Position numbers and translations under genes: made by a program. Below, in pieces: positions 4,248-24,031 of a DNA stretch of 64,000 bases; position 1 is the stretch's first letter, and every line of letters begins with the position of its first letter. The stretch spans positions 14,957-78,956 of the forward strand of contig JBCKBR010000002.1 of assembly GCA_038911065.1 (NCBI GenBank), given 5' to 3'. This stretch comes from Gaiellales bacterium (GTDB taxonomy: Bacteria > Actinomycetota > Thermoleophilia > Gaiellales > F1-60-MAGs149). A model generated the notes under the pieces. That model saw only the letters and a list, made by a program, of their open reading frames with translations, was not told the origin of the DNA and ran no database searches.

Positions 4248-5603
4248 TCATCCGCACTCGTTGCTCGCCGCGTCCAACTCGGCGAGAGCGCTCGCCGCAT
4301 TCTCATTACCGAGTGCTGCGGCCTGCTCGTACCAGGCGCGTGCAGCATCCCGATCACCCGCCTTTTCGGCGAGCACACCAAGATTAGTCATCGCCTCCGG
4401 ATGATCGAGTGTGGTGGCCTGCTCGTACCAGGAGCGTGCGGCATCCAAGTCGCCCGCCTCTTCGGCGAGTAAGCCAAGATTAGTCATCGCCATCGGATTA
4501 CCGGGGTTGGCGGCTAGCTCGTACCAGGCGCGTGCGGCATCCAAGTCACCTGCTCCTTCGGCGAGCACGCCAAGATTAGTCATCGCCTTCGGATTACCGA
4601 GTTGGGCGGCCTGCTCGTACCAGGCGCGTGCAACATCCAATTCACCCACCTCTTCGGCGAGTAAACCAAGATTAGTCATCGCCTGCGGTTGATCGAGTGT
4701 GGCGGCCTGCTCGTACCAGGCGCGTGCGGCATCCAAGTCGCCCCCCTCTTTGGCGAGCAAACCAAGATTAAACATCGCCTGCGGATCATCGAATTGGGCG
4801 GCCTGCTCCCACCACGCGCGTGCACCCTCCAAGTCACCCGCAGAGTGGGCGAGCCAACCAAGATTATTCATCGCCTCCGGGTCATCGAGTGTGGCGGCCT
4901 GCTCGTACCAGGCGCGTGCGGCATCCATGTCGCCCGCCTCTTCGGCGAGCACGCCAAGATTGAACATCGCCTTCGGATTACCGAGTTTGGCGGCCTGCTC
5001 ATACCACGCGCGTGCCACATCCATGTCGCCCGCCTCTTCGGCGAGCACTCCAAGATTAGTCATCGCCTCCGGATGGTTGAGCGTGGCGGCCTGCTCCCAC
5101 CAGGTGCGTGCAGCATCCCGATCACCCGCCTCATAGGCGAGCCAACCAAGCCTATTGATCGCCTTCGGATGATCGAGCGTGGCGGCCTGCTCGTACCAGG
5201 CGCGTGCAGCATCCAGATCACCCGCCTCGTTGGCGAGCACACCAAGATTGATCATCGCATCCTGATTACCGAGGTTGGCGGCCTGCTCCCACCAGGCGCA
5301 TGCAGCATCCAGATCACCCGCCTGTTGGGCGAGCGCTCCAAGAAGGAACATCGCCTGCGAATCATCGAGCTTTGCGGCCTGCTCCCACCAGGCGCGTGCA
5401 GCAGCCAGATCCCCCAACTTATAGGCGAGCACTTCAAGCAGGACCACGCCAGGATCGTGGGCGGCCTGCTCGTACCAGGCGCGTGCAGCATCCATGTCAC
5501 CCGCCTCTTCGGCGAGCACACCAAGATTGGTCATCGCTTCCGGATCATCAGGCGCAACAGCATCATCCGAACTCTGCTGCTGCTGCTTCTTGAAAAGCCC
5601 CAT
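4248..5603 (-). CDS. Sel1/TPR-like repeat protein A (N-cap + 13 x 32-aa repeats + C-cap)
   Basis: MGLFKKQQQQSSDD leader, 96-bp units encoding [DG]xPxAMxxLGxLAxxAGDLDAARAWYEQAAxL, ending LAELDAASNECG. Confidence 0.92.
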   Translation of the reverse strand: MGLFKKQQQQSSDDAVAPDDPEAMTNLGVLAEEAGDMDAARAWYEQAAHDPGVVLLEVLAYKLGDLAAARAWWEQAAKLDDSQAMFLLGALAQQAGDLDAACAWWEQAANLGNQDAMINLGVLANEAGDLDAARAWYEQAATLDHPKAINRLGWLAYEAGDRDAARTWWEQAATLNHPEAMTNLGVLAEEAGDMDVARAWYEQAAKLGNPKAMFNLGVLAEEAGDMDAARAWYEQAATLDDPEAMNNLGWLAHSAGDLEGARAWWEQAAQFDDPQAMFNLGLLAKEGGDLDAARAWYEQAATLDQPQAMTNLGLLAEEVGELDVARAWYEQAAQLGNPKAMTNLGVLAEGAGDLDAARAWYELAANPGNPMAMTNLGLLAEEAGDLDAARSWYEQATTLDHPEAMTNLGVLAEKAGDRDAARAWYEQAAALGNENAASALAELDAASNECG

Positions 5604-5716
5604 TGCGCCCCCTCCGACCTAGTGTCCCACTCGTAGTCGCGCCGTGCAGCCACTTACACATAATGCCGAGCGTAGAGCAAGGCGGACCTCACATCCGCGG
5701 GGTTGTGGCGTCCGCC
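5604..5716 (-). repeat. shared 5' block of Sel1-repeat genes including palindrome copy 3 (5681-5716)
   Basis: + strand CCTAGTGTCCCACTCGTAGTCGCGCCGTGCAGCCACTTACACATAATGCCGAGCGTAGAGCAAGGCGGAC...GTCCGCC. Related copies at 9221, 17525, 20002, 24032 and 27886. Confidence 0.9.
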
Positions 5717-5926
5717 CTCAGGTGCCCTTTAGGCCGCCACAGGGGAGTGGGGTCAATCTAAAAGGGCCGCGGACACCGCGCCCGGTTTCTCTGTTCACGC
5801 ATACCCGCAAATGCTGCACCCGGGGTCATGGTGTCGTGACTATCGCCTACAGCACTCTCCAACCAACACGCACGACACACAAGACACCGGCCGCGCGTTC
5901 CGAATCGTCTCCAACACTCACCGGCA

Positions 5927-6775
5927 CTAGTTGCTCGCCGCATCCAACTCGGCGAGAGCGCGTGCCGCATCCGCATAACCGAGTTTTGCGGCCTTCTCGT
6001 ACCACGCGCGTGCAGCATCCAGATCACCCGCCTCTTTGGCGAGCACACCAAGATTATTCATCGCCTTCGGATCACCGAGTTTTGCGGCCTTCTCATACCA
6101 CGCGCGTTCAGCATCCAGATCACCCGCCTGATAGGCGAGCAAACCAAGGTTATACATCGCCTCCGGTTTACCGAGTTTGGCGGCCTTCTCATACCACGCG
6201 CGTGCGGCATCCAGATCACCCGCCTTTTCGGCGAGCCAACCAAGATTAGTCATCGCCTCCGGATTACTGAGGTTGGCGGCCTGCTCGTACCACGTGCGTG
6301 CAGCATCCAGATTACCCGCCTCTTCGGCGAGCACTCCAAGATTAGTCATCGCCTTCGGATTACCGAGTTTGGCGGCCTGCTCGTACCACGTGCGTGCAGC
6401 ATCCATGTCGCCCGCCTCTTCGGCGAGCCAACCAAGATTATTGATCGCATCCGAATTACCGAGTTTGGTGGCCTTCTCGTACCAGACGCGTGCCGCATCC
6501 AGATCACCCGCCTTATAGGCGAGCCAACCAAGATTATTCATCGCCTTCGGATTACCGAGTTTGGCGGCCTTCTCATACCACGCGCGTGCAGCATCCAGAT
6601 CACCCGCCTTTTCGGCGAGCCAACCAAGATTGAACATCGCCTCCGGATCATCGAGGTTGGCGGCTGGCGCGCTGATGGCAGCAGAACTCGCGGGCACTAC
6701 CGTCGGTTCCGTAGAACCTCCACACCCAGCAACGATGAAAGCTGAGGCAAACATGAGAAGCAGCAGTCGATTCAT
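5927..6775 (-). CDS. Sel1/TPR-like repeat lipoprotein B (signal peptide II + 7 repeats + C-cap)
   Basis: MNRLLLLMFASAFIVAGC lipobox, 7 repeats, ending LAELDAASN. TAGCGT lies 7 nt before the ATG. Confidence 0.9.
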   Translation of the reverse strand: MNRLLLLMFASAFIVAGCGGSTEPTVVPASSAAISAPAANLDDPEAMFNLGWLAEKAGDLDAARAWYEKAAKLGNPKAMNNLGWLAYKAGDLDAARVWYEKATKLGNSDAINNLGWLAEEAGDMDAARTWYEQAAKLGNPKAMTNLGVLAEEAGNLDAARTWYEQAANLSNPEAMTNLGWLAEKAGDLDAARAWYEKAAKLGKPEAMYNLGLLAYQAGDLDAERAWYEKAAKLGDPKAMNNLGVLAKEAGDLDAARAWYEKAAKLGYADAARALAELDAASN

Positions 6776-6965
6776 ACCGGTGACGCTACTACAACGTGCA
6801 GCACACGATCAGAAAGCCCGGCGCGCTCGACGATGCGGGATCTTTCCCGGGCGGCAGAGTTTCCGTCACAGGGGAAGGGGGCCGGGGTGTATCACGCGTG
6901 ACGCTCCCAACTTAGACCCACCCTTGGTTTTTTTTTACCCACACCATCAAAGACATCGGCAGGGG

Positions 6966-7088
6966 TCAGGTGCGATTTGCTACCGCTGGCTCAATTACTG
7001 ATGGTTTGATCTGAGCGCCGCAGTGGCCACAAAAAGGATCGCCCGCGACACGCGCCGCGCCACAGGACCCGCAGAAGCCATTGGTCAT
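6966..7088 (-). pseudogene. zinc-ribbon N-terminal fragment (40 aa)
   Basis: MTNGFCGSCGAARVAGDPFCGHCGAQ. ATGA overlap with the upstream gene, stops soon after the zinc ribbon. Confidence 0.5.
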
Positions 7089-7732
7089 GTAGCCGTGACT
7101 ACGATCAAGGTTGCGAATGCGATTGCGACGAGGCAGATTGGGCCAAACGCCCAGACCACGCTCCAGCGGGTCCAGCATCGAGTGGGTGCCGTGCCCCCGC
7201 TCAGCGCATTCAATGCTCCGCGCAGCCGCTGCAACGTGTGTCCGTACATAAAGAACACCACAATCGCTGCAATAGAACCAAGGTAGGGAATATACGCCAA
7301 AGCGAACCACGTCGTGTAGCGTCTCGTGTTGATTCCCTCAGTGCCTGCCTTCTTTGCGACGAGGTCAATATCGCGCCAGAGATCACGCGCCACAAAGATC
7401 TGCCAAATTGGGACCACCATGCCGAAAGTCTGTCGACCAGGATCGTCACGCCCATCGTGGTTGATCGCGGATATCTGCTTACGGGTGCAGTAGAACCAGT
7501 AAAGCCCCCAGATCCCGGAGGAGATGATGTAGAAGACGATCGCCCGCCCTATTGCGAAGTTCGCCAGATCCGTGCCAGCATCGATTGTCACCGGCGTGGT
7601 CGCAGGCTCGCTGAATGCAGCTGGCATAGCCATCACGCTCTCCGACGATGCGTGCACAACTTTGGCACCACAGACGCCGCAGAACTCGTCGTCTACACCA
7701 ACGCTTGTCTTGCATGTCTGACAGATCATCAT
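7085..7732 (-). CDS. zinc-ribbon + DUF4234-like membrane protein
   Basis: CQTC...FCGVCG ribbon, ISSGIWGLYWFY motif and several TM segments. Confidence 0.75.
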   Translation of the reverse strand: MMICQTCKTSVGVDDEFCGVCGAKVVHASSESVMAMPAAFSEPATTPVTIDAGTDLANFAIGRAIVFYIISSGIWGLYWFYCTRKQISAINHDGRDDPGRQTFGMVVPIWQIFVARDLWRDIDLVAKKAGTEGINTRRYTTWFALAYIPYLGSIAAIVVFFMYGHTLQRLRGALNALSGGTAPTRCWTRWSVVWAFGPICLVAIAFATLIVVTAT

Positions 7733-7795
7733 GCCTCCTTGAAGTTGGCTACGAGTTCCAGTTGATGGTCGCGCGCAGTTGACACCACCGAGTGG

Positions 7796-9031
7796 CTACG
7801 AATCCGGTGGAAAAGCCACTGCATCGAGCACAATTGTCTCGACTGATCCTCCCGCAGTCAACGTGATCGACAGGTCACCGATCTGCCCTAACTTGCGAAT
7901 GCAAGACGTCGGGAAAGTCACGTCTCGCGCGAGAGCTGGCGGGTCGAGTGGATCGATCGTGTCTGTGGTCGCGGTGCATTGCTGCACACCCGAGGCGTCG
8001 ACGATCTGCGTTGGGTCACCCGTTAGGTCAGGTGTCCCATCGAAGTTCGTGTCGATCGAGAACGAGTAACCCACGGGGCCAGCAGGCGTAGCGTGCTGAA
8101 AGTACAACCACGAAATCGTGGTGGTTGCTGCTGTGGTACTGGCCGCTCCGGCGAAGAAGTCGATGCCATCTTCGGCCGCCCCGTTTCCTCCCGAGCGCGT
8201 GTAGACATAGACTTTCTCCCGAATCAGCCGGCTAATGCGGCGCTTGGCTGTCGGGAGCCACGCGGTGAAGTTGGCCATGCGACCAAACACCGTTGGCGCG
8301 GTCGGCTCGCAGGTATTGCGATAGAACGTCCCCCAAGAGACCACACCGACGAGAGTTGCTCGCCCGCCCTGCTTCGCAATTAGAGGACCGCCTGAATCGC
8401 CACTGCAAGCCCCTCCAAAGATCTCTTCATTGGCGAAGTAGCGTCCAGCTGCGATCTGCACCGCTGGCTTGAAGGACGAACCGAAGATCCGTGCGCCGAC
8501 GTCGGAGTAGTCTTTGACTCGGAGCGCTCCGAGCTCACTGGGCTGTTCGGAGTTCTGATTTAGACCCCACCCATAGAGCATCAGCGAAGCATAGAACGTA
8601 GTTCCGCGGCCAGGGAGCCTTGGATATCTTGCTGGCTCGCACCCGGCGGTTACGCGAAGTAGTGCGATGTCATTGACTGAGATCCTCCGTTTGAAATACC
8701 GTGGGTGCGACTCGAATGACAAGACTGCGCAGTAGGCAAGCGTCTTCGTGCTTTTGCCGACACCGACGTAGAGGTTTTCTGGCCGCACGTCGGCGACGCA
8801 GTGAGCAGCCGTGACGACGTATCCACGTGCGATGAACGTGCCAGTGCAATAGCCAGTGATCGTCTTCCCAGCCCAATCTCCCGGTTCATCAACGTACATG
8901 ATTGAAGTGACATAAGGCACGGTATTCCCACTCACTTCGCCAGTGGGGTACGACACTGCACTGGCGGTACTGACCCACGCGAGTGAGGCGGCCACTGCTG
9001 TCATGGCGAGGATCATTCGGCGGGTGTTCAT
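7796..9031 (-). CDS. secreted trypsin-like (S1) serine protease
   Basis: Signal peptide and catalytic motifs TAAHC, NDIALL and GDSGGP. Confidence 0.92.
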   Translation of the reverse strand: MNTRRMILAMTAVAASLAWVSTASAVSYPTGEVSGNTVPYVTSIMYVDEPGDWAGKTITGYCTGTFIARGYVVTAAHCVADVRPENLYVGVGKSTKTLAYCAVLSFESHPRYFKRRISVNDIALLRVTAGCEPARYPRLPGRGTTFYASLMLYGWGLNQNSEQPSELGALRVKDYSDVGARIFGSSFKPAVQIAAGRYFANEEIFGGACSGDSGGPLIAKQGGRATLVGVVSWGTFYRNTCEPTAPTVFGRMANFTAWLPTAKRRISRLIREKVYVYTRSGGNGAAEDGIDFFAGAASTTAATTTISWLYFQHATPAGPVGYSFSIDTNFDGTPDLTGDPTQIVDASGVQQCTATTDTIDPLDPPALARDVTFPTSCIRKLGQIGDLSITLTAGGSVETIVLDAVAFPPDS

Positions 9032-9055
9032 TACGCAATACCTCGCGATAATTGA

Positions 9056-9105
9056 TAACGATTGGTTACTACGGTATACGTTAAAAAGATACGTGTCAAT
9101 CGTTA
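9056..9105 (-). promoter_or_regulatory. sigma70-type promoter of the protease, overlapped by an inverted repeat
   Basis: Minus strand TTGACA (9099-9094)-N17-TACCGT (9076-9071). TAACGATTG at 9056 and CAATCGTTA at 9097 form an inverted repeat. Confidence 0.55.
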
Positions 9106-9220
9106 CTATTCGGGGAACTTCGCCTACGGTTCATCGTGGCCTCCGACCACTCGCCGGGAAGTTCGCGTCTATGTCGACGTGACCGGATCCCTCCGCCCAA
9201 CTGGCCTCACCCAACCCTGA

Positions 9221-9299
9221 CACGCCGTGCAGCCACTTACACATAATGCCGAGCGTAGAGCAAGGCGGACATCACATCCGCGCGGTTGTGGCGTCCGCC
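9221..9299. repeat. orphan copy of the shared 5' block + palindrome copy 4 (9264-9299)
   Basis: Nearly identical to 5641-5716, but not followed by a Sel1 gene. Confidence 0.9.
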
Positions 9300-9491: not shown

Positions 9492-9495
9492 TGCT

Positions 9496-10119
9496 ATGCT
9501 GAGGCCCGTGTCCAAGTCGCCGACCATCGACGTCTTTCCGATCTTCCGCACCCAGCATCAGGCTGATCTGTTGCGTCTACTGCTGCTTCAACCTGACAGG
9601 AAGTTCACGGGTGTCGAACTGGCTGAGTTGACTGGGCGCCCGGCGTCCACGATCTACCCTGAGCTAAGGCGCCTTGTGAGCGCAGGCATTATCCGCGAGG
9701 AAGAGGTTGCGACTGCGAAGTACTCCCAGGCGGCGACCAACTCACCGTTCTACGAGCACCTTCGTGCCCTGGTCCAGCTCGCGATGGGGCCGGAGGCCGA
9801 ACTTCGCGGCCGCCTATCGACGATCGACGGCATCGATGTCGCAGTCATCTTCGGCTCGTGGGCGCGCGGGACGGATCTTCACCCGACGAGCGACGTTGAC
9901 GTGCTGGTCGTGGGGACTCCCGCCTACGAACAGCTCGCCGACGCCGCGAGCGAGGTCGAGGCGCTGATCGGGCGCGACGTGCAAATCATCTCGTATAGCT
10001 GGGAAGAACTCGACCAGCGCATCGCTGCCGACAGCGGCTTCGTTAAGAACGTGCTCAACGGCCCGATGAAAGCTTTACTCGGCGAAGTAGAGACGCTCCG
10101 CGAGAGGGGGGCAGCATGA
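9496..10119 (+). CDS. HTH + minimal nucleotidyltransferase (MNT) antitoxin
   Basis: N-terminal wHTH and IFGSWARG...SDVDVLVVG (Pol-beta GS..DxD). Confidence 0.88.
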   Translation: MLRPVSKSPTIDVFPIFRTQHQADLLRLLLLQPDRKFTGVELAELTGRPASTIYPELRRLVSAGIIREEEVATAKYSQAATNSPFYEHLRALVQLAMGPEAELRGRLSTIDGIDVAVIFGSWARGTDLHPTSDVDVLVVGTPAYEQLADAASEVEALIGRDVQIISYSWEELDQRIAADSGFVKNVLNGPMKALLGEVETLRERGAA

Positions 10120-10541
10120 TCGACGCAACGACCGAACCTGTCCCGGCGGACGTCAACGAGGCGGCACGCAAGATTGCGCAGGCGATGAAGCACGCAGAGA
10201 GCGCCGAGCAGTGCGTCGACAATGAGAGCGCGTACATCCTGCTCTATTCCGCCGTGCACAAGGCGCTGGCGGCGGTCTTGATCTCGATCGGTCTTCGCGT
10301 CGGTAGTGGTGAGCGCGGCCACGTCGTGCTCATCCGGGAGGCGAAGAAGCATCTTGGAGCGGAGCACGCGGCGCTCCTGAGTCGTCTCGACCGAGCTCGT
10401 CGAAAGCGCAATAGCGTTTCTTACGAGACCGAGCAGATCACGGACGGCGAACTTGTAGCAATGAAGCACGATGCGATGCTGACGTTGGAAACGGCGGGTC
10501 GCTTCGTTCAAGAGCAGAAGACATCGCCCGCATCGGACTGA
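10116..10541 (+). CDS. HEPN domain protein (MNT-HEPN toxin)
   Basis: ATGA overlap with MNT, helical, LYSAVHKA and RRKRNSVSY (Rx4-Y/H motif). Confidence 0.8.
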   Translation: MIDATTEPVPADVNEAARKIAQAMKHAESAEQCVDNESAYILLYSAVHKALAAVLISIGLRVGSGERGHVVLIREAKKHLGAEHAALLSRLDRARRKRNSVSYETEQITDGELVAMKHDAMLTLETAGRFVQEQKTSPASD

Positions 10542-11283: not shown

Positions 11284-11487
11284 TTAGGTCAGCAGGGCAG
11301 CGCTTCGATTTCGCCGCCGAGAGGTGCGAAGCAGCATGCACCGCAGGGAGATGAAGATAGGCGCCAGCCCGCCAGCGAGGTACACGCGCTCGCGCCATGG
11401 GCCGATGTCGCCGAGGAGCGTGACGAGCGCTCGCTCGCAACGTGCCGTCGTTACCTCGTCGTAGTCAGTGAAGCGGCGCTTGTTCAA
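11284..11487 (-). pseudogene. truncated AbiEii-like nucleotidyltransferase toxin
   Basis: 4-nt overlap with AbiEi. VYLAGGLAP (N-terminal GG motif) followed by an unrelated tail and a stop at 67 aa. Confidence 0.6.
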
Positions 11488-15562: not shown

Positions 15563-17524
15563 CTAGTCGGTCGGGATGGCCGTATCCGACTCGTCTAGTC
15601 CTACCGTATCCGTCTGATCCGCACCTGTCAGATTCGCATTGGTCAGATTCGCACCTGTCAGATTCGCATTGGTCAGATTCGCGTCCGTCAGATTCGCATG
15701 CGTCAGATTCGCATTAGTCAGATCCGCGTCCGTCAGATTCGCACGCGTCAGATCCGCATTCTCCAGGGTCGCACCCATCAGCAACGCATTGGTCAGGTCT
15801 GCATCCGTCAGATTCGCACGCGTCAGATCCGCATTCTCCAGGGTCGCACCCATCAGATTCGCATTAGTCAGATCCGCGTCCGTCAGCACCGCATTGGTGA
15901 GGTCCGGATCCTCACTGAGTCCCCAGCTGGAACAGTATTGATAGATGAAAGCACTTGTCAGCGAGGCTTTGGCGAGATTTGCGCCAGTGAGATCGGCTCC
16001 TGCAAGGACCGCACCGCAGAGCCGTGCATCCCGCAGGTCAGCACCCGCCAGGTTGGCATCGGTCAGGTTTGCCTCCAGTATCTCCATTCCCCGAAGATCA
16101 GCACCGGCTAAGTCAACGCCCTCCAACCGCAGAATGGGAACTTCAAGTCTTGTGTCGGGGCGGACAACCCACCCCGCCCGATCTGACAAGGATGTTATAG
16201 GTCGTGGTCCGTCCCAAACGCGTCCCGTCTTTTCCAGCAACACCATTTCGAATTGCGATTTCTCGTGACCACATCTGCCAAGAATGGCGAAGTTGCGTTC
16301 AGCCAATTCGAGATCCCCACGCTCCTGCGCCGCCAACGCGACCAGATAAACGGCATGGGGGTTACCTATCTCCGCGAACTCCTCAAGCCAACCATCATCA
16401 TCAGTCATCTCAGGTGAACGCTTCCGAAACTCATGGAGCCTTTCCATAGCAGCGGCGCTCCCACACAGGGCAAGTTCCCGGAATCGTGCTCTTGCCTCTT
16501 CAGTGTTGCCCTCGACCATTGCGAGAAATCCGGCGGTGTAGTTCTCGGAAATCGCGATAGCGTTGTCCTCAGAAGACGGACCGAGGTTGATAGCCCGCAC
16601 CTTCACCTCACGAATCAGGTCGTCATCCTCAAGGTCTAGAGCCTCCACATCGCCTGCCCAATAGAGGCGTCCAATGCCCTTGATCGCGTCCTCGTGGCCG
16701 AGTTCTGCAGCCTTCTTCCACCAGTCTCGCGCCGCCGCCGTGTCACCCGCCTCTTTGGCGAGAGCGCCGAGATGGGTCATCGCATTCGTGTTGTCGAGTG
16801 CTGCGGCCTGCTCGTACCAGTCTCGCGCCGCCGCCGTGTCACCCGCCTCTTTGGCGAGAGCGCCGAGATGGGTCATCGCATTCGTGTTGTCGAGTGCTGC
16901 GGCCTGCTCGCACCAGTTTCGCGCCGCCGCCGTGTCACCCTCCTCTTGGGCGAGAAAGCCGAGATTGTGCATCGCAGTCGCGTCACCGAATGCTGCGGCC
17001 TGCTCCAACCAGTTTCGCGCCGCCGCCGTATCACCCTCCTTATGGGCGAGAAAGCCGAGATTGATCATCGCTTGCGCGTCACCGAGAGCTGCGGCCCGTT
17101 CATACAGTGGCCGAGCCGCGTCGGCGTCTCCATCATGAAAATCCGCCAATACACCAAGAGCCCTGATTGCCGCAGCGTCATCGTGTTCCGCCGCTTTGAG
17201 ATACCACTCCCGCGCACTGTTGGTATCACCGCGTTCTTCTAAGACCGTTCCGAGGTTGTACATCGCCTTCGCGTCACCGAGTGCTGCTGCCTGCTCGTAC
17301 CAGTCTCGCGCCGCGGCCGTATCACCCTCCTCATTGGCGAGGAGGCCGAGATTGGTCATCGCCTCCGGATTACCAAGTGTGGCGGCCTGCTCGTACCAGG
17401 CGCGTGCAGCATCCAGATCACCCGCCTCATAGGCGAACTCACCAAGATTGATCATCGCTTCCGGATCATCAGGCGCAACAACATCATCCGAACTCTGCTG
17501 CTGCTTCTTCTTCTTCCCCATCAC
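15563..17524 (-). CDS. Sel1-repeat protein C fused to pentapeptide repeats
   Basis: Shared N-cap, 8 repeats, diverged helical middle, then A(D/N)LTx pentapeptide array. Confidence 0.9.
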   Translation of the reverse strand: MMGKKKKQQQSSDDVVAPDDPEAMINLGEFAYEAGDLDAARAWYEQAATLGNPEAMTNLGLLANEEGDTAAARDWYEQAAALGDAKAMYNLGTVLEERGDTNSAREWYLKAAEHDDAAAIRALGVLADFHDGDADAARPLYERAAALGDAQAMINLGFLAHKEGDTAAARNWLEQAAAFGDATAMHNLGFLAQEEGDTAAARNWCEQAAALDNTNAMTHLGALAKEAGDTAAARDWYEQAAALDNTNAMTHLGALAKEAGDTAAARDWWKKAAELGHEDAIKGIGRLYWAGDVEALDLEDDDLIREVKVRAINLGPSSEDNAIAISENYTAGFLAMVEGNTEEARARFRELALCGSAAAMERLHEFRKRSPEMTDDDGWLEEFAEIGNPHAVYLVALAAQERGDLELAERNFAILGRCGHEKSQFEMVLLEKTGRVWDGPRPITSLSDRAGWVVRPDTRLEVPILRLEGVDLAGADLRGMEILEANLTDANLAGADLRDARLCGAVLAGADLTGANLAKASLTSAFIYQYCSSWGLSEDPDLTNAVLTDADLTNANLMGATLENADLTRANLTDADLTNALLMGATLENADLTRANLTDADLTNANLTHANLTDANLTNANLTGANLTNANLTGADQTDTVGLDESDTAIPTD

Positions 17525-17582
17525 GCCCCCGCCTTACTTAGTGTCCCACTAGTAGTCGCGCACGCCGTGCAGCCACTTACAC
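17525..17582 (-). repeat. shared 5' block (without palindrome)
   Basis: CTTAGTGTCCCACTAGTAGTCGCGCACGCCGTGCAGCCACTTACAC. Confidence 0.85.
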
Positions 17583-17749
17583 CATGAATAGCCCCCGGGT
17601 TCCATAGCGTCTGTTTTTGTTTGCTGACCTGCCAGGACAGGCGTCAGTGTTCCGAGTTATTGAGTGGCGTTGACGCGGCTTAGAGAGCGCTGGGCGGCAA
17701 GCCTGGCTGGGGGCGTGGCATGCACTTCGATCAAACGCAGTGCGTGTGT

Positions 17750-18478: not shown

Positions 18479-19837
18479 TCAGGAAGGCTCGGTATCCGGC
18501 GGTGTCTCTGGATCCACAATCGTGTAGTCGCCGAGGTCGCCGCGTAGGTTCTCGTTCACGCTGGGATTCTTGCGTTTAATTGGTGGCGGCACTAGGCCAT
18601 TCCTGAACATCAGGGGGACGCCCCAACTAGCCGCCAGCACAGCAGCGCCGGACTCGGTCAGCCGCTCATCATTCTCAACCGCTAGTTCGTAGCCCATACC
18701 TCGTATCGACCGCTTCCAAGAGTCGGCCCCCGGGGTCAACTCGTCAGCCTCAAAGCCGTAGGCGCGATACAGGACGTAGTAGTTTGGCTTGGTTCCCATC
18801 ACAACGTAATCCATGCGGCTCCTTTCTCGTGCGCTTTGATCGAGTTTGGCGGCCTGCTCGTACCACGTGCGTGCAGCATCCAGATCACCCATCTCTTCGG
18901 CGAGCGCTCCAAGATTGAACATGGCATTCGAATCATCGGGGTTGGCGGCCTGCTCGTACCAGGCGCGTGCAGCATCCAGATCACCCGCCTCATAGGTGAG
19001 CCGACCAAGATTGGACATCGCCCACAGATAATCGAGTTTGGCGGCCTGCTCGTACCAGGCGCGTGCAGCATCCAAGTTGCCAGCCTCTTCGGCGAGCAAA
19101 CCAAGATTAGTCATCGCCTCCGGATTACTGAGTTTGACGGCCTTCTCCCACCAGGCGCGTGCAGCTTCCAAGTCACCCGCATCTTTGGCGAGTCCACCAA
19201 GACCGAGCATCGCGTCCTGATTACCGAGTGTGGCGGCCTGCTCGAGCCAGGCGCGTGCAGCGTCCAGGCCACTCGTATCTTGGGTGAGCGCTCCAAGCTT
19301 GAACGTGGCATCCGGTTGATCGAGGTTGGCGGCCTGCTCGTACCAGGCGCGTGCAGCATCCAGATCACCCGCCTCTTGGGCGAGCACTCCAAGTTTAGTC
19401 ATCGCATCCGGTTGATCGAGGTTGGCGGCCTTCTCGTACCAGTCGCGTGCAGCATCCAGGTCACCCGCCTGTTGGGCGAGGAAACCAAGAACGGTCATCG
19501 CATCCGGATTACCGAGTTTGGCGGCCTTCTCCCACCACGCGCGTGCACCATCCAGATCACCCGCCTCTTGGGCGAACGCTCCAAGATTGAACATGGCATC
19601 CGGATCATCGAGTTTGGCGGCCTGCTCGTAGCAGGTGTGTGCAGCATCCCGATCAGCCCACTCTCTGTCCTGCTTGTCTTGGGCAGCATCGTAGGCAGCC
19701 TCGTAGATCTTGGCGGCGGCGTCATGCGCGGCGAGGCGCGCAACCTCGTCTCCTTTGTGCTGGATGTTGACGGCGAGGACTGTCGAGAGATAGACGCGCA
19801 TCGCGGCGGCCTTTGTGGCGTTCATGGTGACTTTCAT
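18479..19837 (-). CDS. Sel1-repeat protein D with foreign N- and C-terminal domains
   Basis: About 60 unrelated aa, about 8.5 repeats, then a 111-aa domain that has its own GAAAGGAG + ATG (18814). Confidence 0.85.
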   Translation of the reverse strand: MKVTMNATKAAAMRVYLSTVLAVNIQHKGDEVARLAAHDAAAKIYEAAYDAAQDKQDREWADRDAAHTCYEQAAKLDDPDAMFNLGAFAQEAGDLDGARAWWEKAAKLGNPDAMTVLGFLAQQAGDLDAARDWYEKAANLDQPDAMTKLGVLAQEAGDLDAARAWYEQAANLDQPDATFKLGALTQDTSGLDAARAWLEQAATLGNQDAMLGLGGLAKDAGDLEAARAWWEKAVKLSNPEAMTNLGLLAEEAGNLDAARAWYEQAAKLDYLWAMSNLGRLTYEAGDLDAARAWYEQAANPDDSNAMFNLGALAEEMGDLDAARTWYEQAAKLDQSARERSRMDYVVMGTKPNYYVLYRAYGFEADELTPGADSWKRSIRGMGYELAVENDERLTESGAAVLAASWGVPLMFRNGLVPPPIKRKNPSVNENLRGDLGDYTIVDPETPPDTEPS

Positions 19838-20001
19838 GGTGGCTGGCTCCTTTCGTGGTGGGCGGCCGGCTCGTACCTGACGCGCACAACATCCAGATCC
19901 CCCGCCTCATAGGCGATCTCACCAAGATTGATCATCGCATCCGGATCATCAGACGCGACAGCATCATCCGAACTCTGCTGCGGCTTCTCGAAAAGCCCCA
20001 T
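19834..20001 (-). pseudogene. N-cap + single repeat stub (55 aa)
   Basis: MGLFEKPQQSSDDAVASDDPDAMINLGEIAYEAGDLDVVRVRYEPAAHHERSQPP*. Its TGA overlaps the ATG of gene D. Confidence 0.75.
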
Positions 20002-20112
20002 TGCGCCGCCTCCGACCTAGGGTTCCACTCGTAGTCGCGCACGCCGTGCAGCCGCTTACACGCAATGGCGAGTGTAGAGCAGGGCGGACATCACATCCGC
20101 GCGGTGGTGGCG
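20002..20112 (-). repeat. shared 5' block + degenerate palindrome (20083-20112)
   Basis: CCTAGGGTTCCACTCGTAGTCGCGCACGCCGTGCAGCCGCTTACAC...GTAGAGCAGGGCGGACATCACATCCGCGCGGTGGTGGCG. Confidence 0.85.
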
Positions 20113-20191
20113 ATCGTCGCCGCAACGGCTACCCGCACGCGCAGGTCGCAGTACCTGACCTGGGAGGACGTACCGCTCCCTGGGTCGCCCA

Positions 20192-20243
20192 CAGCCTACG
20201 CCTAGTCGGTTGGGATGCCCGCATCCGACTCGTCTAGTCCTAC
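20192..20243 (-). repeat. copy of the 3' end of the pentapeptide gene C (15553-15604)
   Basis: 49/52 nt identical. Encodes VGLDESDAGIPTD*, with an ADLTNAN relic just upstream. Confidence 0.85.
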
Positions 20244-20276
20244 TGCTCTCGTCGGTTCGCATTCGTCAGATCCGCA

Positions 20277-21152
20277 CTAGTTGCTCGACGCATCCAACTC
20301 GGCGAGCCACTTCGCCGCATCCTCATCACCGAGTTTGGCGGCCTTCTCGAACCACGCGCGTGCCGCATCTAGGTCACCCGCCTCTTCGGCGAGCGCTCCA
20401 AGCCCATACATCGCAACCGGATCACCGAGTTTGGCGGCCTGCTCGAGCCAGACGCGTGTCGCATCCAGATCCCCCGCCTCTTCGGCGAGCACTCCAAGGT
20501 GGATCATCGCCTTGGGATCATCGAGTGTGGCGGCCTGCTCGTACCAAGCGCGTGCAGCATCCTCATCACTCGCCTCATAGGCGAGCAAACCAAGACTAGT
20601 CATCGCCTCCGGAACACCGAGTTTGGCAGCCTGTTCCCACCACGCGCGTGCAACATCTAGGTCACCCGCCTCTTCGGCGAGCGCTCCAAGATTGAATATC
20701 GCATCCGGTTGATCGAGGTTGGCGGCCTTCTCGTACCAGACGCGCCCCGCATCCAGATCACCCGCCTCATAGGCGAGCACTCCAAGACTAGTCATCGCAT
20801 CCGGATCACCGAGTTTGGCGGCCTTCTCCCACCAGGCGTGAGCAGCATCCAGATCCCCCGCCTTTTCGGCGAGCACACCAAGACGGAACATGGCATCCGG
20901 ATGATCGAGTGTGGCGGCCTGCTCGTAGCAGGTGCGTGCAGCATCCAGGTCACCCGCCTCTTCGGCGAGAAAACCAAGATAGAGCATCGCATCCGGATCA
21001 CCGAGTTTGGCGGCCTTCTCCCACCAGACGCGTGCAGCATCCGTATCACCCGCCTCATAGGCGAGCTCACCAAGATCGGTCATCGCTTCCGGATCAGCAG
21101 TGGCAACAACATCATCCGAACTCTGCTGCTGCTGCTTCTTGAAGAGCCCCAT
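20277..21152 (-). CDS. Sel1-repeat protein E (N-cap + 8 repeats + C-cap)
   Basis: MGLFKKQQQQSSDD at 21152 with GGAGG RBS, ending LAELDASSN. Confidence 0.92.
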   Translation of the reverse strand: MGLFKKQQQQSSDDVVATADPEAMTDLGELAYEAGDTDAARVWWEKAAKLGDPDAMLYLGFLAEEAGDLDAARTCYEQAATLDHPDAMFRLGVLAEKAGDLDAAHAWWEKAAKLGDPDAMTSLGVLAYEAGDLDAGRVWYEKAANLDQPDAIFNLGALAEEAGDLDVARAWWEQAAKLGVPEAMTSLGLLAYEASDEDAARAWYEQAATLDDPKAMIHLGVLAEEAGDLDATRVWLEQAAKLGDPVAMYGLGALAEEAGDLDAARAWFEKAAKLGDEDAAKWLAELDASSN

Positions 21153-21295
21153 CACGCGCCTCCTAGGTGGGTTCACCCTAGAGTCGATCCACACGGCATT
21201 TGGCTTACGCAGTGTATTGAATCGGACGCACGTGTGGAGGGGTATTGTCGGGTGATTGACCACACGGGGAGCTTGGTGCGTGCGCCAGAATCACT

Positions 21296-21847
21296 TCACT
21301 CACCAGTGGTCTTGCGCCGCTGCCAGGCCTCGATCGCAACGCGCTCAATCGCCTCCGTCGATAGTTCCCTCGTGACGCGCTCGGCGGCCTCGCTCTTTGG
21401 CATTGCCGACGTCTCATCGAGCCCGAGCGCCTGCAAGAGCTCTAGGCGACGCAACCCATAGACGATCCGCGCAGAGTGGGCCTTTGCCCGTGGCCGCGGC
21501 TTGCGCGTGCCGAACTTCTTCGACCGTGTCCGCAAGAAGAACCCGTTCTCCTGCTCCTCACAGACCCAGATCCCGCAGCGATCGCCGACGGTCGCGCGCA
21601 CGCCCTCGACGTGCCGCGGCTCCGTCACGACGAGTACCTGGCGGAAGCGGTGGTCGTAGAGCGCGTACTGCTTGGCGAGGCGCTTCAGTGTGTCCTTATC
21701 CGACTTGATCTCGATTCCAGTCAGCACACCGTCGATCATCGCGACCATGTCCACGCGGCAGTTCTTGACGTTGATCTCATCGACCCATGGGATGCCGGCC
21801 TTGTCGAACTCGGCGTGGAGGCGGTCGCGGATGTCAGCGTCGTTCAC
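21296..21847 (-). CDS. sce7726/MmcB-like PD-(D/E)xK nuclease-fold protein
   Basis: VDEI...RVDMVAM...GIEIKSDKDTLKRLAKQ...Y. GTGA overlap with the upstream ORF. Confidence 0.8.
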   Translation of the reverse strand: MNDADIRDRLHAEFDKAGIPWVDEINVKNCRVDMVAMIDGVLTGIEIKSDKDTLKRLAKQYALYDHRFRQVLVVTEPRHVEGVRATVGDRCGIWVCEEQENGFFLRTRSKKFGTRKPRPRAKAHSARIVYGLRRLELLQALGLDETSAMPKSEAAERVTRELSTEAIERVAIEAWQRRKTTGE

Positions 21848-22047
21848 GCGAGGTCCCACCCGTCGTCATCATCAATCGGCGTGTTCCGCGTGCTCCCGTC
21901 GAAGAGGCCTTCGGAGCGCCAGCGGTGTCGCTCTGGGCCGCAGCACTCGTAGTCGCACATGCTCCGAATGGTGTCGCTGCCGAAGCTAATGAAGGCGACG
22001 ATCACACCTTCGGTGCCACACGTTGGGCAGATGCGCTCGTCGCTCAT
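21844..22047 (-). CDS. small Cys-rich (zinc-finger-like) protein
   Basis: MSDERICPTCGTE...CDYECCGPERHRW, with strong RBS AAGGAGGAG. Confidence 0.6.
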   Translation of the reverse strand: MSDERICPTCGTEGVIVAFISFGSDTIRSMCDYECCGPERHRWRSEGLFDGSTRNTPIDDDDGWDLA

Positions 22048-22075
22048 GTCGGCTCCTCCTTTTCCTTCATCCAGA

Positions 22076-24031
22076 TCATCCGCACTCGTTGCTCGACGCA
22101 TCCAACTCGGCGAGGTTGCTCGCCGCATCCTCATCACCGAGTGTGGCGGCCTGCTCCCACCACGCGCGTGCAGCATCCAGGTCACCCGCCTGTTGGGCGA
22201 GCACTCCAAGATTGTTCATCGCTTCCGGTTGATCGAGTGTGGCGGCCTGCTCGTACCAGGCGCGTGCAGCATCCAGGTCACCCGCCTGTTGGGCGAGCAA
22301 ACCAAGACTATTCATCGCATCCGGTTGATCGAGTGCTGCGGCCTGCTCTAACCAGGCGCGTGCACCATCCAGGTCACCCGCATCTTCGGCGAGCACACCA
22401 AGAAGGATCATCGCACCCGGATCACCGAGGTTGGCGGCCTGCTCCCCCCACGCGCGTGCAGCATCCAGGTCACCCGCCTTTTCGGCGAGCACACCAAGAA
22501 GGACCATGGCACCCGGATGATCGAGTGTGGCGGCCTGCTCGTACCAGGCGCGTGCAGCATCCATGTCACCCGCCTCTTTGGCGAGCCCACCAAGATTGAA
22601 CATCGCATCCGGATGATCGAGTGTGGCGGCCTGCTCGTACCAGGCGCGTTCAGCATCCAGGTCACCCGCCTCATAGGCGAGCCGCCCAAGATTAGTCATC
22701 GCATCCGGATCATCGAGTGTGGCGGCCTTCTCCCACCACGCGCGTGCAGCATCCAGGTCACCCGCCTCATAGGCGAGAACGCCGAGATTGTACATCGCCT
22801 GCGTTTGATCGAGTGTGGCGGCCTTCTCCCACCACGCGCGTGCAGCATCCAGGTCACCCGCCTCTTTGGCGAGCGCACCAAGACGATTCATCGCATCCGG
22901 ATCATCGAGTGTGGCGGCCTGCTCTAACCAGGCGCGTGCACCATTCAGATCACCCTCCTCATGGGCGAGCACTCCAAGATTGAACATGGCATCCGGTTGA
23001 TCGAGTTTGGCGGCCTGCTCGTACCAGGCGCGCGCCGCATCCAAGTCACCCGCCTCTTTGGCGAGCACACCAAGAAGGGCCATCGCAGTCGGATCATCGT
23101 GTTTGGCGGCCTGCTCCCACCAGGCGCGTGCAGCATCCCGATCACCCGCCTGTTCGGCGAGCCCACCAAGTTTGGTCATCGCCCCCGCGCAACCATCATC
23201 GGCGCCCTGACGAAGCCACGAGCACGCTGCCTCAACGTCACCCTCATCTAGGGCGCTTTCCACGAGCGCCCACATCGCATCGCTACTTCCACGCTCGGCG
23301 TTGCACTCCAACATATTCTGCCACGCACCCTCATCGCCACTCAAGATGGCTTCCATGTCGATACCAGACATCCCCATCGGAGGGGGCCATCTTCCAGCCT
23401 TTTCCAACCACGCCCGGTACGCCTTCTTGTCGCCGGCGTCGTAGGCGAGATCTGCGAGATTTTCCATCGCGTCATAGGCGCCGTCATACGCGTCGCTCGT
23501 GTCTGCGGCCTTCTGCCACCACGAGCGGGCTCCATCCATGTCCCCCGCCTCCTTGGCGAGGTCTCCGAGGTGGAGCATTCCCGTCGCGGCACCGAGGTCT
23601 GCAAGTTGTCCCCACCATGAGCGCGCCGCATCCACGTCGCCCAGCTTGTCGGCAAGATAGCCGAGCTTATACAGCCCAGTCGTATCGCCGTGCTCTAGAG
23701 CCTTCAGGTACCACTCGCGTGCCTTATCAAAATCGGCTTCTTCACTCTCGAACCGTACGCCGAGACCAACCATCGCGCCTGCGTGGCCGAGCGCTGCCGC
23801 CTTCCCAAACCACTCACGTGCCGCAGCAGTATCGTTCACATAGAGCGCGAAATCTCCAAGGTGGTCCATCGCGTCTGCGCTGCCAAGGTCTGCGGCCTGC
23901 TGATACCAGTTTCGCGCCGCATCCTTATCACCCGCCTCATAGGCGAGCCCACCAAGTTTGATCATCGCTTCCGGATCATCAGGCGCAACATCATCATCCG
24001 AACTCTGCTGCTTCTTGAAAAGCCCCATCAC
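22076..24031 (-). CDS. Sel1-repeat protein F (N-cap + ~18 repeats + C-cap)
   Basis: Repeats 2-7 are diverged, repeats 8-18 are of the homogeneous 96-bp type. Ends LAELDASSNECG. Confidence 0.92.
   Translation of the reverse strand: MMGLFKKQQSSDDDVAPDDPEAMIKLGGLAYEAGDKDAARNWYQQAADLGSADAMDHLGDFALYVNDTAAAREWFGKAAALGHAGAMVGLGVRFESEEADFDKAREWYLKALEHGDTTGLYKLGYLADKLGDVDAARSWWGQLADLGAATGMLHLGDLAKEAGDMDGARSWWQKAADTSDAYDGAYDAMENLADLAYDAGDKKAYRAWLEKAGRWPPPMGMSGIDMEAILSGDEGAWQNMLECNAERGSSDAMWALVESALDEGDVEAACSWLRQGADDGCAGAMTKLGGLAEQAGDRDAARAWWEQAAKHDDPTAMALLGVLAKEAGDLDAARAWYEQAAKLDQPDAMFNLGVLAHEEGDLNGARAWLEQAATLDDPDAMNRLGALAKEAGDLDAARAWWEKAATLDQTQAMYNLGVLAYEAGDLDAARAWWEKAATLDDPDAMTNLGRLAYEAGDLDAERAWYEQAATLDHPDAMFNLGGLAKEAGDMDAARAWYEQAATLDHPGAMVLLGVLAEKAGDLDAARAWGEQAANLGDPGAMILLGVLAEDAGDLDGARAWLEQAAALDQPDAMNSLGLLAQQAGDLDAARAWYEQAATLDQPEAMNNLGVLAQQAGDLDAARAWWEQAATLGDEDAASNLAELDASSNECG

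Follow-up and report, generated by a model that had tools for sequence, protein, structure and literature searches.

The window analysed here, a 64,000-nt stretch of a metagenome-assembled contig (assembly of 110 contigs, 78% complete) from a Gaiellales bacterium, carries at positions 4248–24031 six minus-strand genes, g1–g6, whose ORFs and translations consist of 32-residue units of the TPR/Sel1 type (Table 1); the interval is bounded by the outermost ends of the g1 and g6 ORFs. A seventh gene, g7, has the N-terminus common to this repeat-gene family, and following its one unit it continues for about 1100 residues as another helical repeat, whose sole Pfam match, to DUF2336, is weak. All reading frames of g1–g6 are open across 282–653 codons, and their products match Pfam TPR_2, TPR_8, and Sel1 far over the cut-offs (for g1, TPR_2 at 172.5 bits and Sel1 at 95.8 bits). 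The C-terminus of g3 is formed by pentapeptide repeats (Pentapeptide, 160.2 bits; TPR_2, 77.5 bits), and the 115-residue C-terminal domain of g4 matched no Pfam family. The N-terminus of g2 is a putative lipoprotein-type signal peptide, a hydrophobic stretch ending in AGC with a lipobox as read from the sequence, and its signal and linker are common to the database proteins P0009, P0011, and P0025.

Table 1. Features of the repeat-gene locus, in window coordinates.
Feature	Position	Strand	Length	Description
g1	4248..5603	minus	451 aa	N-terminal MGLFKKQQQQ leader (ORF translation)
g1 units	4299-5537			12 canonical 32-residue units, then C-terminal half-unit cap (unit table)
Conserved upstream block, one copy	5604..5700	minus	~95 nt	Found by alignment
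g2	5927..6775	minus	282 aa	7 units at 5969-6640, then cap
g3	15563..17524	minus	653 aa	Leader, 7 canonical units at 16688-17458, and degenerate units
g4	18479..19837	minus	452 aa	N-terminus unrelated; 8 units at 18830-19597
g4-upstream fragment	19834..20001	minus	55 aa	Truncated leader and one unit, then stop; frame differs from g4; conserved upstream DNA retained
g5	20277..21155	minus	292 aa	From leader ATG at 21155; ORF extends to GTG at 21263; 8 units (20319-21086) and cap; linkers switch between KLG and T/NLD types
g6	22076..24031	minus	651 aa	Leader; N-terminal half degenerate, followed by 11 near-regular units; 12 canonical units at 22127-23968
g7	24334..27885	minus	1183 aa	Leader, upstream DNA, and one unit as in the repeat-gene family

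The conserved block of about 95 nt upstream of g1 contains what reads as a promoter-like TACACT, a 5′ leader, and a G-rich ribosome-binding stretch. Further copies precede g3, the g4 fragment, g6, and g7, with a weaker copy at g5; the block matched no Rfam family, and its consensus folding is only weak. The window is a defence island, with PADLOC matches to DpdD/E/F/H/J, PbeA, PDC-S11, PDC-M05A/B, and cll. None of g1–g7 matched a PADLOC model at E 1e-5, and no NTPase or effector domain was found in them.

In the proteins of g1–g6, anchor motifs recur every 32 residues, which the DNA mirrors as a 96-nt period with about 51 in-register copies. The alignment comprises the 54 units in 32-residue register, leaving out degenerate, indel-bearing, or half units (g1 aa 52–83; g3 aa 119–151 and after 279; g4 aa 49–80; g6 aa 54–283; and the C-terminal half-unit caps). 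The variable residues x1–x4 are unit positions 3, 4, 7, and 10, and x5 is position 11; their entropies are 2.71, 2.25, 2.73, 2.31, and 1.69 bits, and outside this set positions 27, 30, and 32 reach 2.30, 2.42, and 2.85 bits, so that these eight are the most variable positions of the unit. Fourteen scaffold positions (1, 2, 5, 6, 8, 9, 13, 14, 18, 19, 21, 23, 25, and 26) stay at or below 0.6 bits. The near-constant scaffold with hypervariable fixed sites that a preliminary description had noted is thus borne out position by position, as are its lists of residues: all 24 x1x2 pairs are present together with IK, all eight x3 residues together with T, and all 10 x4x5 pairs among the 17 observed. 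Linkers had been said to alternate among a few alleles; the five named do occur but cover only 20 of the 54 units, and there are 37 distinct five-residue linkers. The units carry 48 distinct x1–x5 combinations, within-gene unit identity is 0.60–0.75, and nucleotide identity (0.77) exceeds amino-acid identity (0.65).

The AF2 model of g5 (pLDDT 93.7, pTM 0.82) comprises 17 helices and places helix A at unit positions 31–32 and 1–11, where the variable residues had been expected. Its best Foldseek matches are the consensus TPR proteins 9qhb and 8chy and the Sel1 proteins 6ok3, 8sxq, 1ouv, and 6deh. Ungapped TPR_2/TPR_1 matches in g1, g2, g5, g6, and P0001 equate unit position p with TPR position p+2. 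Unit residues M2, L5, G6, A9, A18, Y22, and A25 thereby fall on TPR positions 4, 7, 8, 11, 20, 24, and 27, which we take to be the canonical TPR signature positions, and x1–x5 map to TPR positions 5, 6, 9, 12, and 13. According to Magliery and Regan (2005, PMC1261162), TPR positions 2, 5, 6, 9, 12, and 13 contact peptide in the HOP TPR1/TPR2A complexes, so the earlier proposal that the x residues line the concave groove agrees with published ligand-contact positions. Position 6 is given there as often Asn, contacting the ligand backbone (PMC1261162); x2 is Asn in 32 of the 54 units, which fits this equivalence. With a spacing of i, i+3, i+4, i+7, and i+10/11, the x residues share one helical face, and helix geometry together with the register suggests that x1–x5 may form one continuous surface.

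Global omega is 1.06 across the unit despite the strongly conserved scaffold. The site test, a custom script run on a fixed tree built from the same 32 codons and of a kind that recombination between units inflates, gave omega above 1 at p < 0.0016 (Bonferroni threshold over 32 sites) at 8 of the 32 codon sites, so the variability pattern is not due to chance. This site-specific excess of amino-acid replacement reaches omega values of 3.9, 3.1, 2.8, and 4.0 at positions 3, 4, 7, and 10 (p 1e-4 to 2e-9). Positions 27, 30, and 32 evolve as fast as x1–x4, and the variable set is therefore wider than x1–x5, whereas x5, with an omega of 0.95, is variable yet not faster than neutral; omega is about 1.0 at positions 24, 28, and 29. 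Tree-free estimates of x1–x4 dN/dS are 1.97 (all 1431 unit pairs), 2.82 with a range of 1.42–6.11 (200 cross-validated nearest-pair splits), and 3.00 (23 adjacent pairs), ratios that are rough because the x sites are near saturation: between the least diverged pairs pN is still about 0.45. For x1–x5 the bootstrap interval is 1.87–4.13 (27 disjoint pairs), with 0 of 2000 replicates at or below 1; elsewhere dN/dS is 0.55 on the outer face of helix B, 0.28 in the core, and 0.28–0.5 in the scaffold. The x sites were initially chosen for their variability, and the TPR literature independently defines the same set. Diversifying selection rather than drift had been proposed for x1–x5, on the premise that their dN/dS would exceed that of other exposed sites. 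It does so at x1–x4 (2–4), and the proposal stands for these positions but not for x5.

The positions most variable here are likewise the top-ranked ones among 42 units drawn from 10 ORFs in other species of the genus, where x1–x4 dN/dS is 1.54 (73 within-ORF pairs), and among 52 units drawn from 12 database proteins. Of 42 long proteins, some of them fused to protease, caspase, STAND ATPase, TIR, or kinase domains, 33 have position 7, 31 have position 3, and 26 have position 4 within their top six for variability. Between close relatives, flanks are 97–99% identical and the number and content of units differ. Over the last 213 residues, the database protein P0002 and its close relative g4 differ at 4; upstream the two are diverged, and P0002 is shorter there by exactly 64 residues (2 units). 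P0001, P0005, and P0006 have N-terminal domains 97–99.5% identical and arrays 64–72% identical, with 7, 4, and 4 units. A 1605-nt contig present in four of four metagenome runs keeps both g4 flanks, and its g4 region differs from that of the window by 96 nt (894 versus 990 nt). Not every member diversifies, since a lipoprotein member that lies among housekeeping genes in other species is nearly unchanged between three of them (L004, L007, L008).

We regard a diversifying TPR binding groove as the probable general reading of the repeat genes. Relaxed constraint alone, in which exposed positions drift neutrally, purifying selection keeps the scaffold, and the diversity is unselected, appears unlikely. 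It would account for the neutral values at positions 11, 24, 28, and 29 and for the near-saturation of the x sites, and in TPRs generally it is the groove that varies most (PMC1261162). Against it stand the x1–x4 ratios of 2–4 in all designs, the bootstrap, and the low ratio at the outer helix-B positions, which are assumed to be equally exposed; moreover, neutral conversion tracts would be expected to erase the x codons too, as these lie 3–9 nt from codons with homogenised silent sites. That a diversity-generating retroelement or similar agent writes the variable codons by targeted hypermutation is the least credible of the explanations considered, even though variability at fixed codons within otherwise constant sequence resembles the product of such an agent and these retroelements are known to diversify bacterial conflict-system proteins (PMC7159879). 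A search of the 78%-complete genome with RVT_1 gave no match, which makes such an element unlikely; the variable nucleotides are not adenine-centred (x3 codons are GTG, GCG, TGG, TTG, and GGG), and variation extends across more than 50 units in six genes rather than a single variable region with a template repeat. A second report reportedly also links these retroelements to the diversification of bacterial conflict-system proteins.

It is highly improbable that the arrays are an assembly artefact, that is, collapsed chimeras of population variants or mis-joined reads. The assembly is fragmented and incomplete, and in four other runs the arrays assembled only as 126–262 nt pieces with many joints, so the unit order given here may contain errors. 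In-register, codon-specific variability over 54 units, however, cannot arise from mis-joining; variability at these positions recurs in independent assemblies and in isolate genomes from other Actinobacteria, and the frames are open throughout. Equally hard to credit is a true code of one symbol per repeat in the sense of TALE, PPR, or Pumilio proteins, in which each unit would read one base or one residue of a linear ligand through its x residues. The near-constant scaffold with specificity-type residues at fixed sites is what such a code would look like, and the Asn at x2 could be a constant backbone contact beside variable ones, but the fold is neither TALE nor PPR, the number of distinct x combinations speaks against a small alphabet, no nucleic-acid-binding feature is known, and the published TPR complexes (PMC1261162) show no simple per-repeat code in their peptide binding. 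The "RVD-like code" of the preliminary description is thus an analogy only: no discrete alphabet was seen in the units, and rather than establishing a novel type of code, the pattern is one that TPR proteins and fungal immune receptors were already known to show.

In the diversifying-groove reading, the products are TPR/Sel1-type alpha-solenoids of 32-residue helix-turn-helix units. Their scaffold residues, near-constant at the protein and DNA level, would pack the two helices and are held so by purifying selection and, probably, by recombination between units. An exposed stripe of helix A (unit positions 32, 3, 4, 7, 10, and 11, corresponding to TPR positions 2, 5, 6, 9, 12, and 13) would face the concave groove, in which extended peptides or protein surfaces are bound by TPR proteins. 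This stripe, apart from position 11, and loop positions 27 and 30 are substituted faster than silent sites, so that nearly every unit differs and every paralogue would display its own binding surface. Whole units are also gained, lost, and exchanged in arrays between close relatives. We infer that the groove binds proteins or peptides and that its diversity answers variable targets.

Several known systems show parts of this pattern. Magliery and Regan (2005, PMC1261162) give TPR positions 2, 5, 9, 12, 13, 33, and 34 as most variable, matching unit positions 32, 3, 7, 10, 11, and about 30, and unit position 4 matches their contact position 6; their figures were compiled from thousands of unrelated TPRs, whereas the present genes form one young family with a near-identical scaffold, dN above dS, and a unit of 32 rather than 34 residues. 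The TPR, ANK, and WD arrays of fungal NOD-like receptors (Dyrka et al. 2014, PMC4986451) likewise have near-identical repeats, repeat numbers that are polymorphic among isolates, and signs of concerted evolution, but there the arrays form the C-terminal sensor part of NACHT or NB-ARC ATPases, and highly conserved fungal repeats were defined by an 85% criterion, compared with 0.60–0.75 identity here. The NB-ARC-TPR and ROCO-LRR genes of Ectocarpus (Zambounis et al. 2012, PMC3341825) are clustered and fast-evolving; a unit-wise analysis found diversifying selection on their repeat modules, for which variable ligands are proposed. They differ in being eukaryotic, in shuffling separate 42-residue exons, in encoding NB-ARC domains, and in weaker selection on TPR exons (5 of 245 lineages). 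Sel1-like proteins (HcpC 1ouv, LpnE 6deh, LceB 8sxq, Oxalobacter 6ok3) share the fold and sequence family and are among the best structural matches, whereas the unit here has 32 residues and no cysteine pairs and comes from an uncultured freshwater actinobacterium, not a host-associated pathogen; close relatives of this organism occur in metagenome runs with freshwater or estuary labels. Sel1 repeats span 36–44 residues with a longer inter-helix loop, and a Helicobacter Sel1-like family is reportedly under positive selection. TALE repeats are also tandem, near-identical units with specificity residues at fixed positions, but their ligand is DNA, read by two residues in a loop with a small proven alphabet, and the fold here is TPR/Sel1. 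Designed consensus TPRs (CTPR; 9qhb, 8chy), the best structural matches, have an idealised scaffold that permits groove-residue variation, but are man-made with identical 34-residue repeats.

In relatives from other Actinobacteria, repeats of the same 32-residue class, variable at the same positions, are fused to Trypsin_2, Peptidase_C14, AAA_16, P-loop, TIR_2, and Pkinase domains. These protease, caspase, STAND ATPase, TIR, and kinase fusions suggest invader proteins as the most likely targets, and the arrays might, as a tentative reading, serve as sensors or decoys of proteins from phage or mobile elements. A known counterpart is the bacterial STAND/NLR-like and protease- or caspase-linked conflict proteins with TPR arrays (Kaur et al. 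2020, PMC7159879). In the window no partner NTPase or effector was found, and the arrays stand alone or are joined to pentapeptide, LRV-like, or uncharacterised domains.

The repeats assigned to 4248–24031 in the preliminary description end exactly at the outermost ends of six minus-strand open reading frames, g1–g6, each built of a 32-residue TPR/Sel1-type unit, with g2 of lipoprotein type; a seventh gene, g7, shares their N-terminus. Recurring anchor motifs are spaced 32 residues apart, and the DNA has a period of 96 nt with ~51 in-register copies. A unit-profile search of the genome (1.99 Mb, 110 contigs, 78% complete) places every copy within the g1–g7 cluster, with the exception of one orphan unit. 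The orphan is intergenic and 14 kb away from the cluster, and no open frame surrounds it. The remainder of g7 is LRV/HEAT-like by eye and gives only a weak DUF2336 match in Pfam. The N-terminus of g4 itself is unrelated, and the remnant upstream of this gene looks like the trace of an earlier rearrangement or frameshift in which the g4 start was replaced.

Features of the repeat-gene cluster and its surroundings (window positions)
Feature	Position	Strand	Remarks
g1	4248–5603	−	ORF
g2	5927–6775	−	ORF; lipoprotein
g3	15563–17524	−	ORF
g4	18479–19837	−	ORF
g5	20277–21263	−	ORF; leader ATG at 21155
g6	22076–24031	−	ORF
g7	24334–27885	−	1183 residues: family leader and one TPR unit, then ~1100 residues of another helical repeat
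Remnant, 55 codons	19834–20001	−	Leader and one unit, then stop; other frame, directly upstream of g4
Orphan single unit	about 41946–42032	−	~29 residues, 66% identity to g5
Conserved ~95-nt block	5604–5700, 17525–17620, 20002–20095, 24032–24125, 27886–27960	−	Upstream of g1, g3, g4 fragment, g6, g7
Weaker copy of ~95-nt block	21156–21250	−	Upstream of g5
187-residue protein	21296–21859	−	Between g5 and g6; no Pfam family; PADLOC "cll", E 3e-17
Zinc-ribbon/DUF4234 membrane protein	7085–7732	−	Head-to-tail with trypsin-family protease, upstream of g2
Secreted trypsin-family protease	7796–9031	−	150-residue C-terminal extension; upstream of g2
Ser/Thr protein kinase gene	33152–34711	+	
Ser/Thr protein kinase gene	34814–36379	−	
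Ser/Thr protein kinase gene	37114–39210	−	
FHA-protease	39252–41060	+	Two FHA domains, trypsin-like, PDZ; adjoins kinase genes
Defence island	44811–63912, also 28792–32167, 9496–10541, 11484–12539, 3230–3775		PADLOC/Pfam

The 54 units that retain the 32-residue register were aligned, leaving out degenerate or indel-bearing units and C-terminal half-unit caps. The alignment confirms the original observation of variable residues at five fixed sites, x1–x5 (unit positions 3, 4, 7, 10, and 11), in a nearly constant scaffold: entropy at these sites is 2.71, 2.25, 2.73, 2.31, and 1.69 bits, respectively, 14 scaffold positions have at most 0.6 bits, and every residue listed for the variable sites is found in the units. 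Together the five sites take 48 distinct combinations in the 54 units, with 25 x1x2 pairs. Further entropy peaks fall at positions 32 (2.85 bits), 30 (2.42 bits), and 27 (2.30 bits). The five linker sequences that had been described as a few alternating alleles account for only 20 of the units; within g5 (20319–21086), linkers of a KLG type alternate with those of a T/NLD type, a pattern suggestive of a super-repeat of two units. Scaffold codon usage is stereotyped, and identity between units is higher for nucleotides (0.77) than for amino acids (0.65), the ranges within genes being 0.72–0.87 and 0.60–0.75, respectively.

In terms of fold, the AlphaFold2 model of g5 (pLDDT 93.7, pTM 0.82) consists of 17 stacked helices of 12–14 residues, with helix A formed by unit positions 31–32 and 1–11 and helix B by positions 15–27. 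Its top Foldseek matches are the consensus TPRs 9qhb and 8chy and the Sel1 proteins 6ok3, 8sxq, 1ouv, and 6deh, and model and matches alike display the tandem helix-turn-helix solenoid that defines TPR proteins. Positions 32, 3, 4, 7, 10, and 11 lie on a single face of helix A (spacing i, i+3, i+4, i+7, i+10/11), and the conserved positions 1, 5, 8, 9, and 12 occupy the opposite face. In the ungapped Pfam matches of g1, g2, g5, g6, and P0001, a related database protein, unit position p corresponds to TPR position p+2, a register that makes x1–x5 TPR positions 5, 6, 9, 12, and 13 and unit position 32 TPR position 2. According to Magliery and Regan (PMC1261162), variability among TPRs is greatest at positions 2, 5, 9, 12, 13, 33, and 34, each of which faces the concave side; peptide contacts in the HOP complexes are made by positions 2, 5, 6, 9, 12, and 13; and position 6 is often an Asn that touches the ligand backbone. 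The Asn found at x2 in 32 of the 54 units matches this frequent Asn. The proposal that the variable helix-A sites line the concave groove of the solenoid is correct on the basis of register mapping and helix geometry, as distinct from model coordinates.

The claim of diversifying selection rather than drift at all five sites holds for x1–x4 and fails for x5. Global omega for the units is 1.06 (IQ-TREE GY+F3X4) despite the conservation of most unit positions. A site-wise likelihood test (our own script, with a fixed tree and one common synonymous rate) gave omega values of 3.9, 3.1, 2.8, and 4.0 at positions 3, 4, 7, and 10, and 0.95 at position 11. Positions 22, 27, 30, and 32 gave 3.1, 3.4, 3.1, and 3.2, respectively, and omega exceeds 1 at p < 0.0016 at eight of the 32 sites; the variable set as first drawn was therefore incomplete, with positions 27, 30, and 32 also evolving rapidly. 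Since recombination between units can inflate site-wise tests, tree-free counts were added. Over all 1431 pairs, dN/dS at x1–x4 is 1.97. An initial nearest-pair design was treated as biased because the choice of pairs and dS drew on the same codons, which lowers dS; it was replaced by held-out codons, in which half of the scaffold codons picks the nearest pairs and the other half supplies dS, and by pairs defined by position alone. The former yields 2.82 (range 1.42–6.11 over 200 splits) and the latter, with 23 adjacent pairs, 3.00, compared with 0.38–0.52 for the scaffold, 0.55 for the outer face of helix B, and 0.28 for the core. The x codons lie only 3–9 nt away from codons with homogenised silent sites, and the persistence of their diversity in such surroundings would be hard to explain without selection.

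Two other sources of the variability were considered. Neither hallmark of a diversity-generating retroelement target, a reverse transcriptase with a template repeat or variation at adenine positions, was found: no PF00078 match appeared in the genome, which at 78% completeness leaves absence short of proof, while control genomes gave matches, and the variable bases are not centred on adenine, the commonest x3 codons being GTG and GCG and the x1 codons including ACT and TTC. Taken together, these two results make such a mechanism unlikely. Codon-specific variability that stays in register and is found again in independent genomes cannot come from an assembly artefact; the order of units inside the arrays remains open to assembly error.

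Whole units are gained and lost as well. g4 and the database protein P0002 have four differences in their last 213 residues and have diverged upstream, where they differ by a 64-residue, two-unit indel. Three other database proteins, P0001, P0005, and P0006, with seven, four, and four units, are 97–99.5% identical in their N-terminal domains and 64–72% identical in their arrays. Among the sequencing runs listed, seven matched, each carrying at most 12% of the words sampled, and none of these is an RNA run. A 1605-nt contig with both g4 flanks was recovered from four of four runs, all labelled freshwater or estuary metagenome; its flanks differ from the window at 8 of 388 nt and 25 of 205 nt, and the sequence between them measures 894 nt vs 990 nt in the window, the 96-nt difference being one unit length. 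Repeat-number polymorphism of the kind described for NLR-type arrays is thus present, and the g5 linkers and the g4/P0002 indel hint that gain and loss proceed by a 64-residue super-repeat.

Proteins g1–g6 match the TPR_2, TPR_8, and Sel1 families far above Pfam cut-offs. TPR_2 scores are 172.5, 116.6, 77.5, 85.4, 102.7, and 152.8 bits in g1 to g6, respectively (cut-off 27), and Sel1 (PF08238) scores are 60.5–107.8 bits (cut-off 30.7). The Pfam TPR matches are ungapped over TPR positions 1–31; the canonical TPR has 34 residues whereas the present unit has 32, the two missing residues falling in the loop after helix B. Sel1 units comprise 36–44 residues, and their helices are joined by an extended loop. 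The 36 positions of the Sel1 profile are matched here by 32 residues, short of the Sel1 unit length. Among near-length matches with measurable unit spacing, the commonest spacing is 32 in 49 proteins and 36 in 25, counts obtained with a unit profile 32 residues long, which favours 32. The units pass Pfam cut-offs only for TPR/Sel1-type families and their structural matches are TPR/Sel1 proteins, in contrast to the fold and family of TALEs. The “RVD-like code” proposed for the variable sites is unsupported in view of this fold and of the number of x1x2 pairs and five-site combinations. No description of this particular stand-alone 32-residue family was found in the literature searched, although such an absence is not proof.

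Among described systems, the fungal NOD-like receptors come closest in regime: their TPR, ANK, and WD repeats combine high internal conservation with polymorphism in repeat number and with positive selection on the concave side (PMC4986451). The g1–g6 family has in common with these arrays selection at concave positions, as placed by register mapping, and changes in unit number. The two differ in that amino-acid identity within genes is 0.60–0.75 here and repeat identity exceeds 85% in the fungal arrays, and in that the latter are attached to NACHT, NB-ARC, or STAND NTPases, whereas Pfam detects no NTPase domain in g1–g7; it is only in more distant relatives that arrays are linked to an NTPase. 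A Helicobacter Sel1-like family has reportedly also been under positive selection (PMC1941758). The NB-ARC–TPR genes of Ectocarpus (PMC3341825) are a parallel case, and Kaur et al. (PMC7159879) describe bacterial conflict systems with repeats that form superstructures, TPRs among them.

Close relatives are few: about a dozen database proteins have 47–68% identity, and in these the unit is joined to DUF6891, DUF2511, pentapeptide repeats, or an unnamed 200-residue domain; some of them have the family N-terminal leader or the lipoprotein signal of g2. A match is present in 18 of the 24 other genomes of the genus, with best identities of 48–50%. Variability is again highest at the same positions among 42 units of 10 ORFs from other species and among 52 units of 12 database proteins, and dN/dS at x1–x4 in other species is 1.54 (73 within-ORF pairs), with dS near saturation. 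Of 108 longer relatives, mostly Actinobacteria, the 42 with at least six ungapped 32-residue units were used; the six most variable positions include position 7 in 33, position 3 in 31, and position 4 in 26 of them. Among the longer relatives, the fusion partners of the repeat are peptidases (trypsin-like and caspase), AAA_16/STAND ATPases, and TIR, kinase, and XRE HTH domains. A genome-collection search with g5 returned 27 loci, all distant TPR/Sel1 proteins (25–36% identity, unrelated phyla) and none of them a close relative. A five-unit lipoprotein member is common to other species of the genus (L043 at 7740–8510 in genome G008, and L004, L007, and L008). It is almost unchanged between the three species of the last three loci, adjoins the housekeeping genes for aspartate-semialdehyde dehydrogenase and aspartokinase, recR, and dnaX, and may represent the conserved form from which the expanded family arose. 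A 452-residue relative in another species has an integrase, a Ser/Thr kinase, and a primase-polymerase as neighbours.

Within the ~95-nt block upstream of the genes are a −10-like box (TACACT), a 5′ leader that includes a small hairpin, and a ribosome-binding stretch rich in G. Next comes a 22-residue N-terminal peptide common to the genes (MGLFKKQQQQSSDD...), which is predicted to be disordered, varies in the number of Lys/Gln codons, and heads proteins with different bodies. Among 27 genus genomes, the leader DNA pattern (at most three mismatches) is found only in the window's own genome, in three copies. No Rfam family matched in the whole window, and the consensus fold of the 5′ leader (−7.42 kcal/mol, positive covariation term, compensatory change in 2 of 18 pairs) falls short of what would identify an RNA element.

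In the window, PADLOC identifies DpdD, DpdE, DpdF, DpdH, and DpdJ, PbeA, PDC-S11, a PDC-M05A/B pair, and cll, and Pfam adds QueC in the Dpd cluster, AbiEi, and a MazF-like toxin. The resulting defence island holds a Dpd 7-deazaguanine DNA-modification cluster, a PbeA-like helicase, PDC-S11 (DUF4268), and the PDC-M05A/B nucleotidyltransferase–HEPN pair. Genes g1–g7 match zero families of PADLOC-DB 2.0 at E 1e-5, whereas neighbouring genes do match. The window has no tRNA gene and no integrase, the genome's three integrase matches lying on other contigs.

One conceivable role, to which we give little credence, is that the cluster constitutes a germline repertoire of stand-alone protein binders, made of shuffled and selected units, whose paralogues recognise or decoy changing invader proteins. 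Such a repertoire would be a bacterial counterpart of fungal and algal NLR-like hypervariable repeat sensors, uncoupled from any NTPase. In it, a constant Asn backbone contact with variable neighbours could permit unit-by-unit recognition of an extended peptide, a partial code, and the promoter-leader block together with the N-terminal peptide would give all members common regulation or a common location. If the ligands are invader proteins, stand-alone TPR arrays would join the bacterial recognition modules, and the 54 natural scaffold variants would be a ready library for the study or engineering of TPR specificity; if they are ordinary cellular partners, the cluster remains a documented, unsurprising example of a known TPR rule, the greatest variability at binding positions. 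The cluster provides a natural example, in the defence island of a small-genome uncultured actinobacterium, of a regime described mainly in eukaryotic immune receptors, in which the scaffold is constant, groove residues are driven apart, and arrays gain, lose, and exchange whole units.

The trypsin-family protease, the DUF4234 membrane protein, and the lipoprotein g2 may form one operon. No link of these neighbours to g2 emerged; a complex prediction for g2 and the adjacent protease, run without controls, scored 0.00 against a mark of 0.34, which weighs neither for nor against such a link. Kinship of either protease in the window with the repeat-fused protease of the database protein P0121 was considered and rejected, as BLASTP E values of 8.3 for the protease next to g2 and 0.30 for the FHA-protease indicate no specific protease link. 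A kinase, like those beside the FHA-protease, also adjoins a TPR relative in another species (locus L044).
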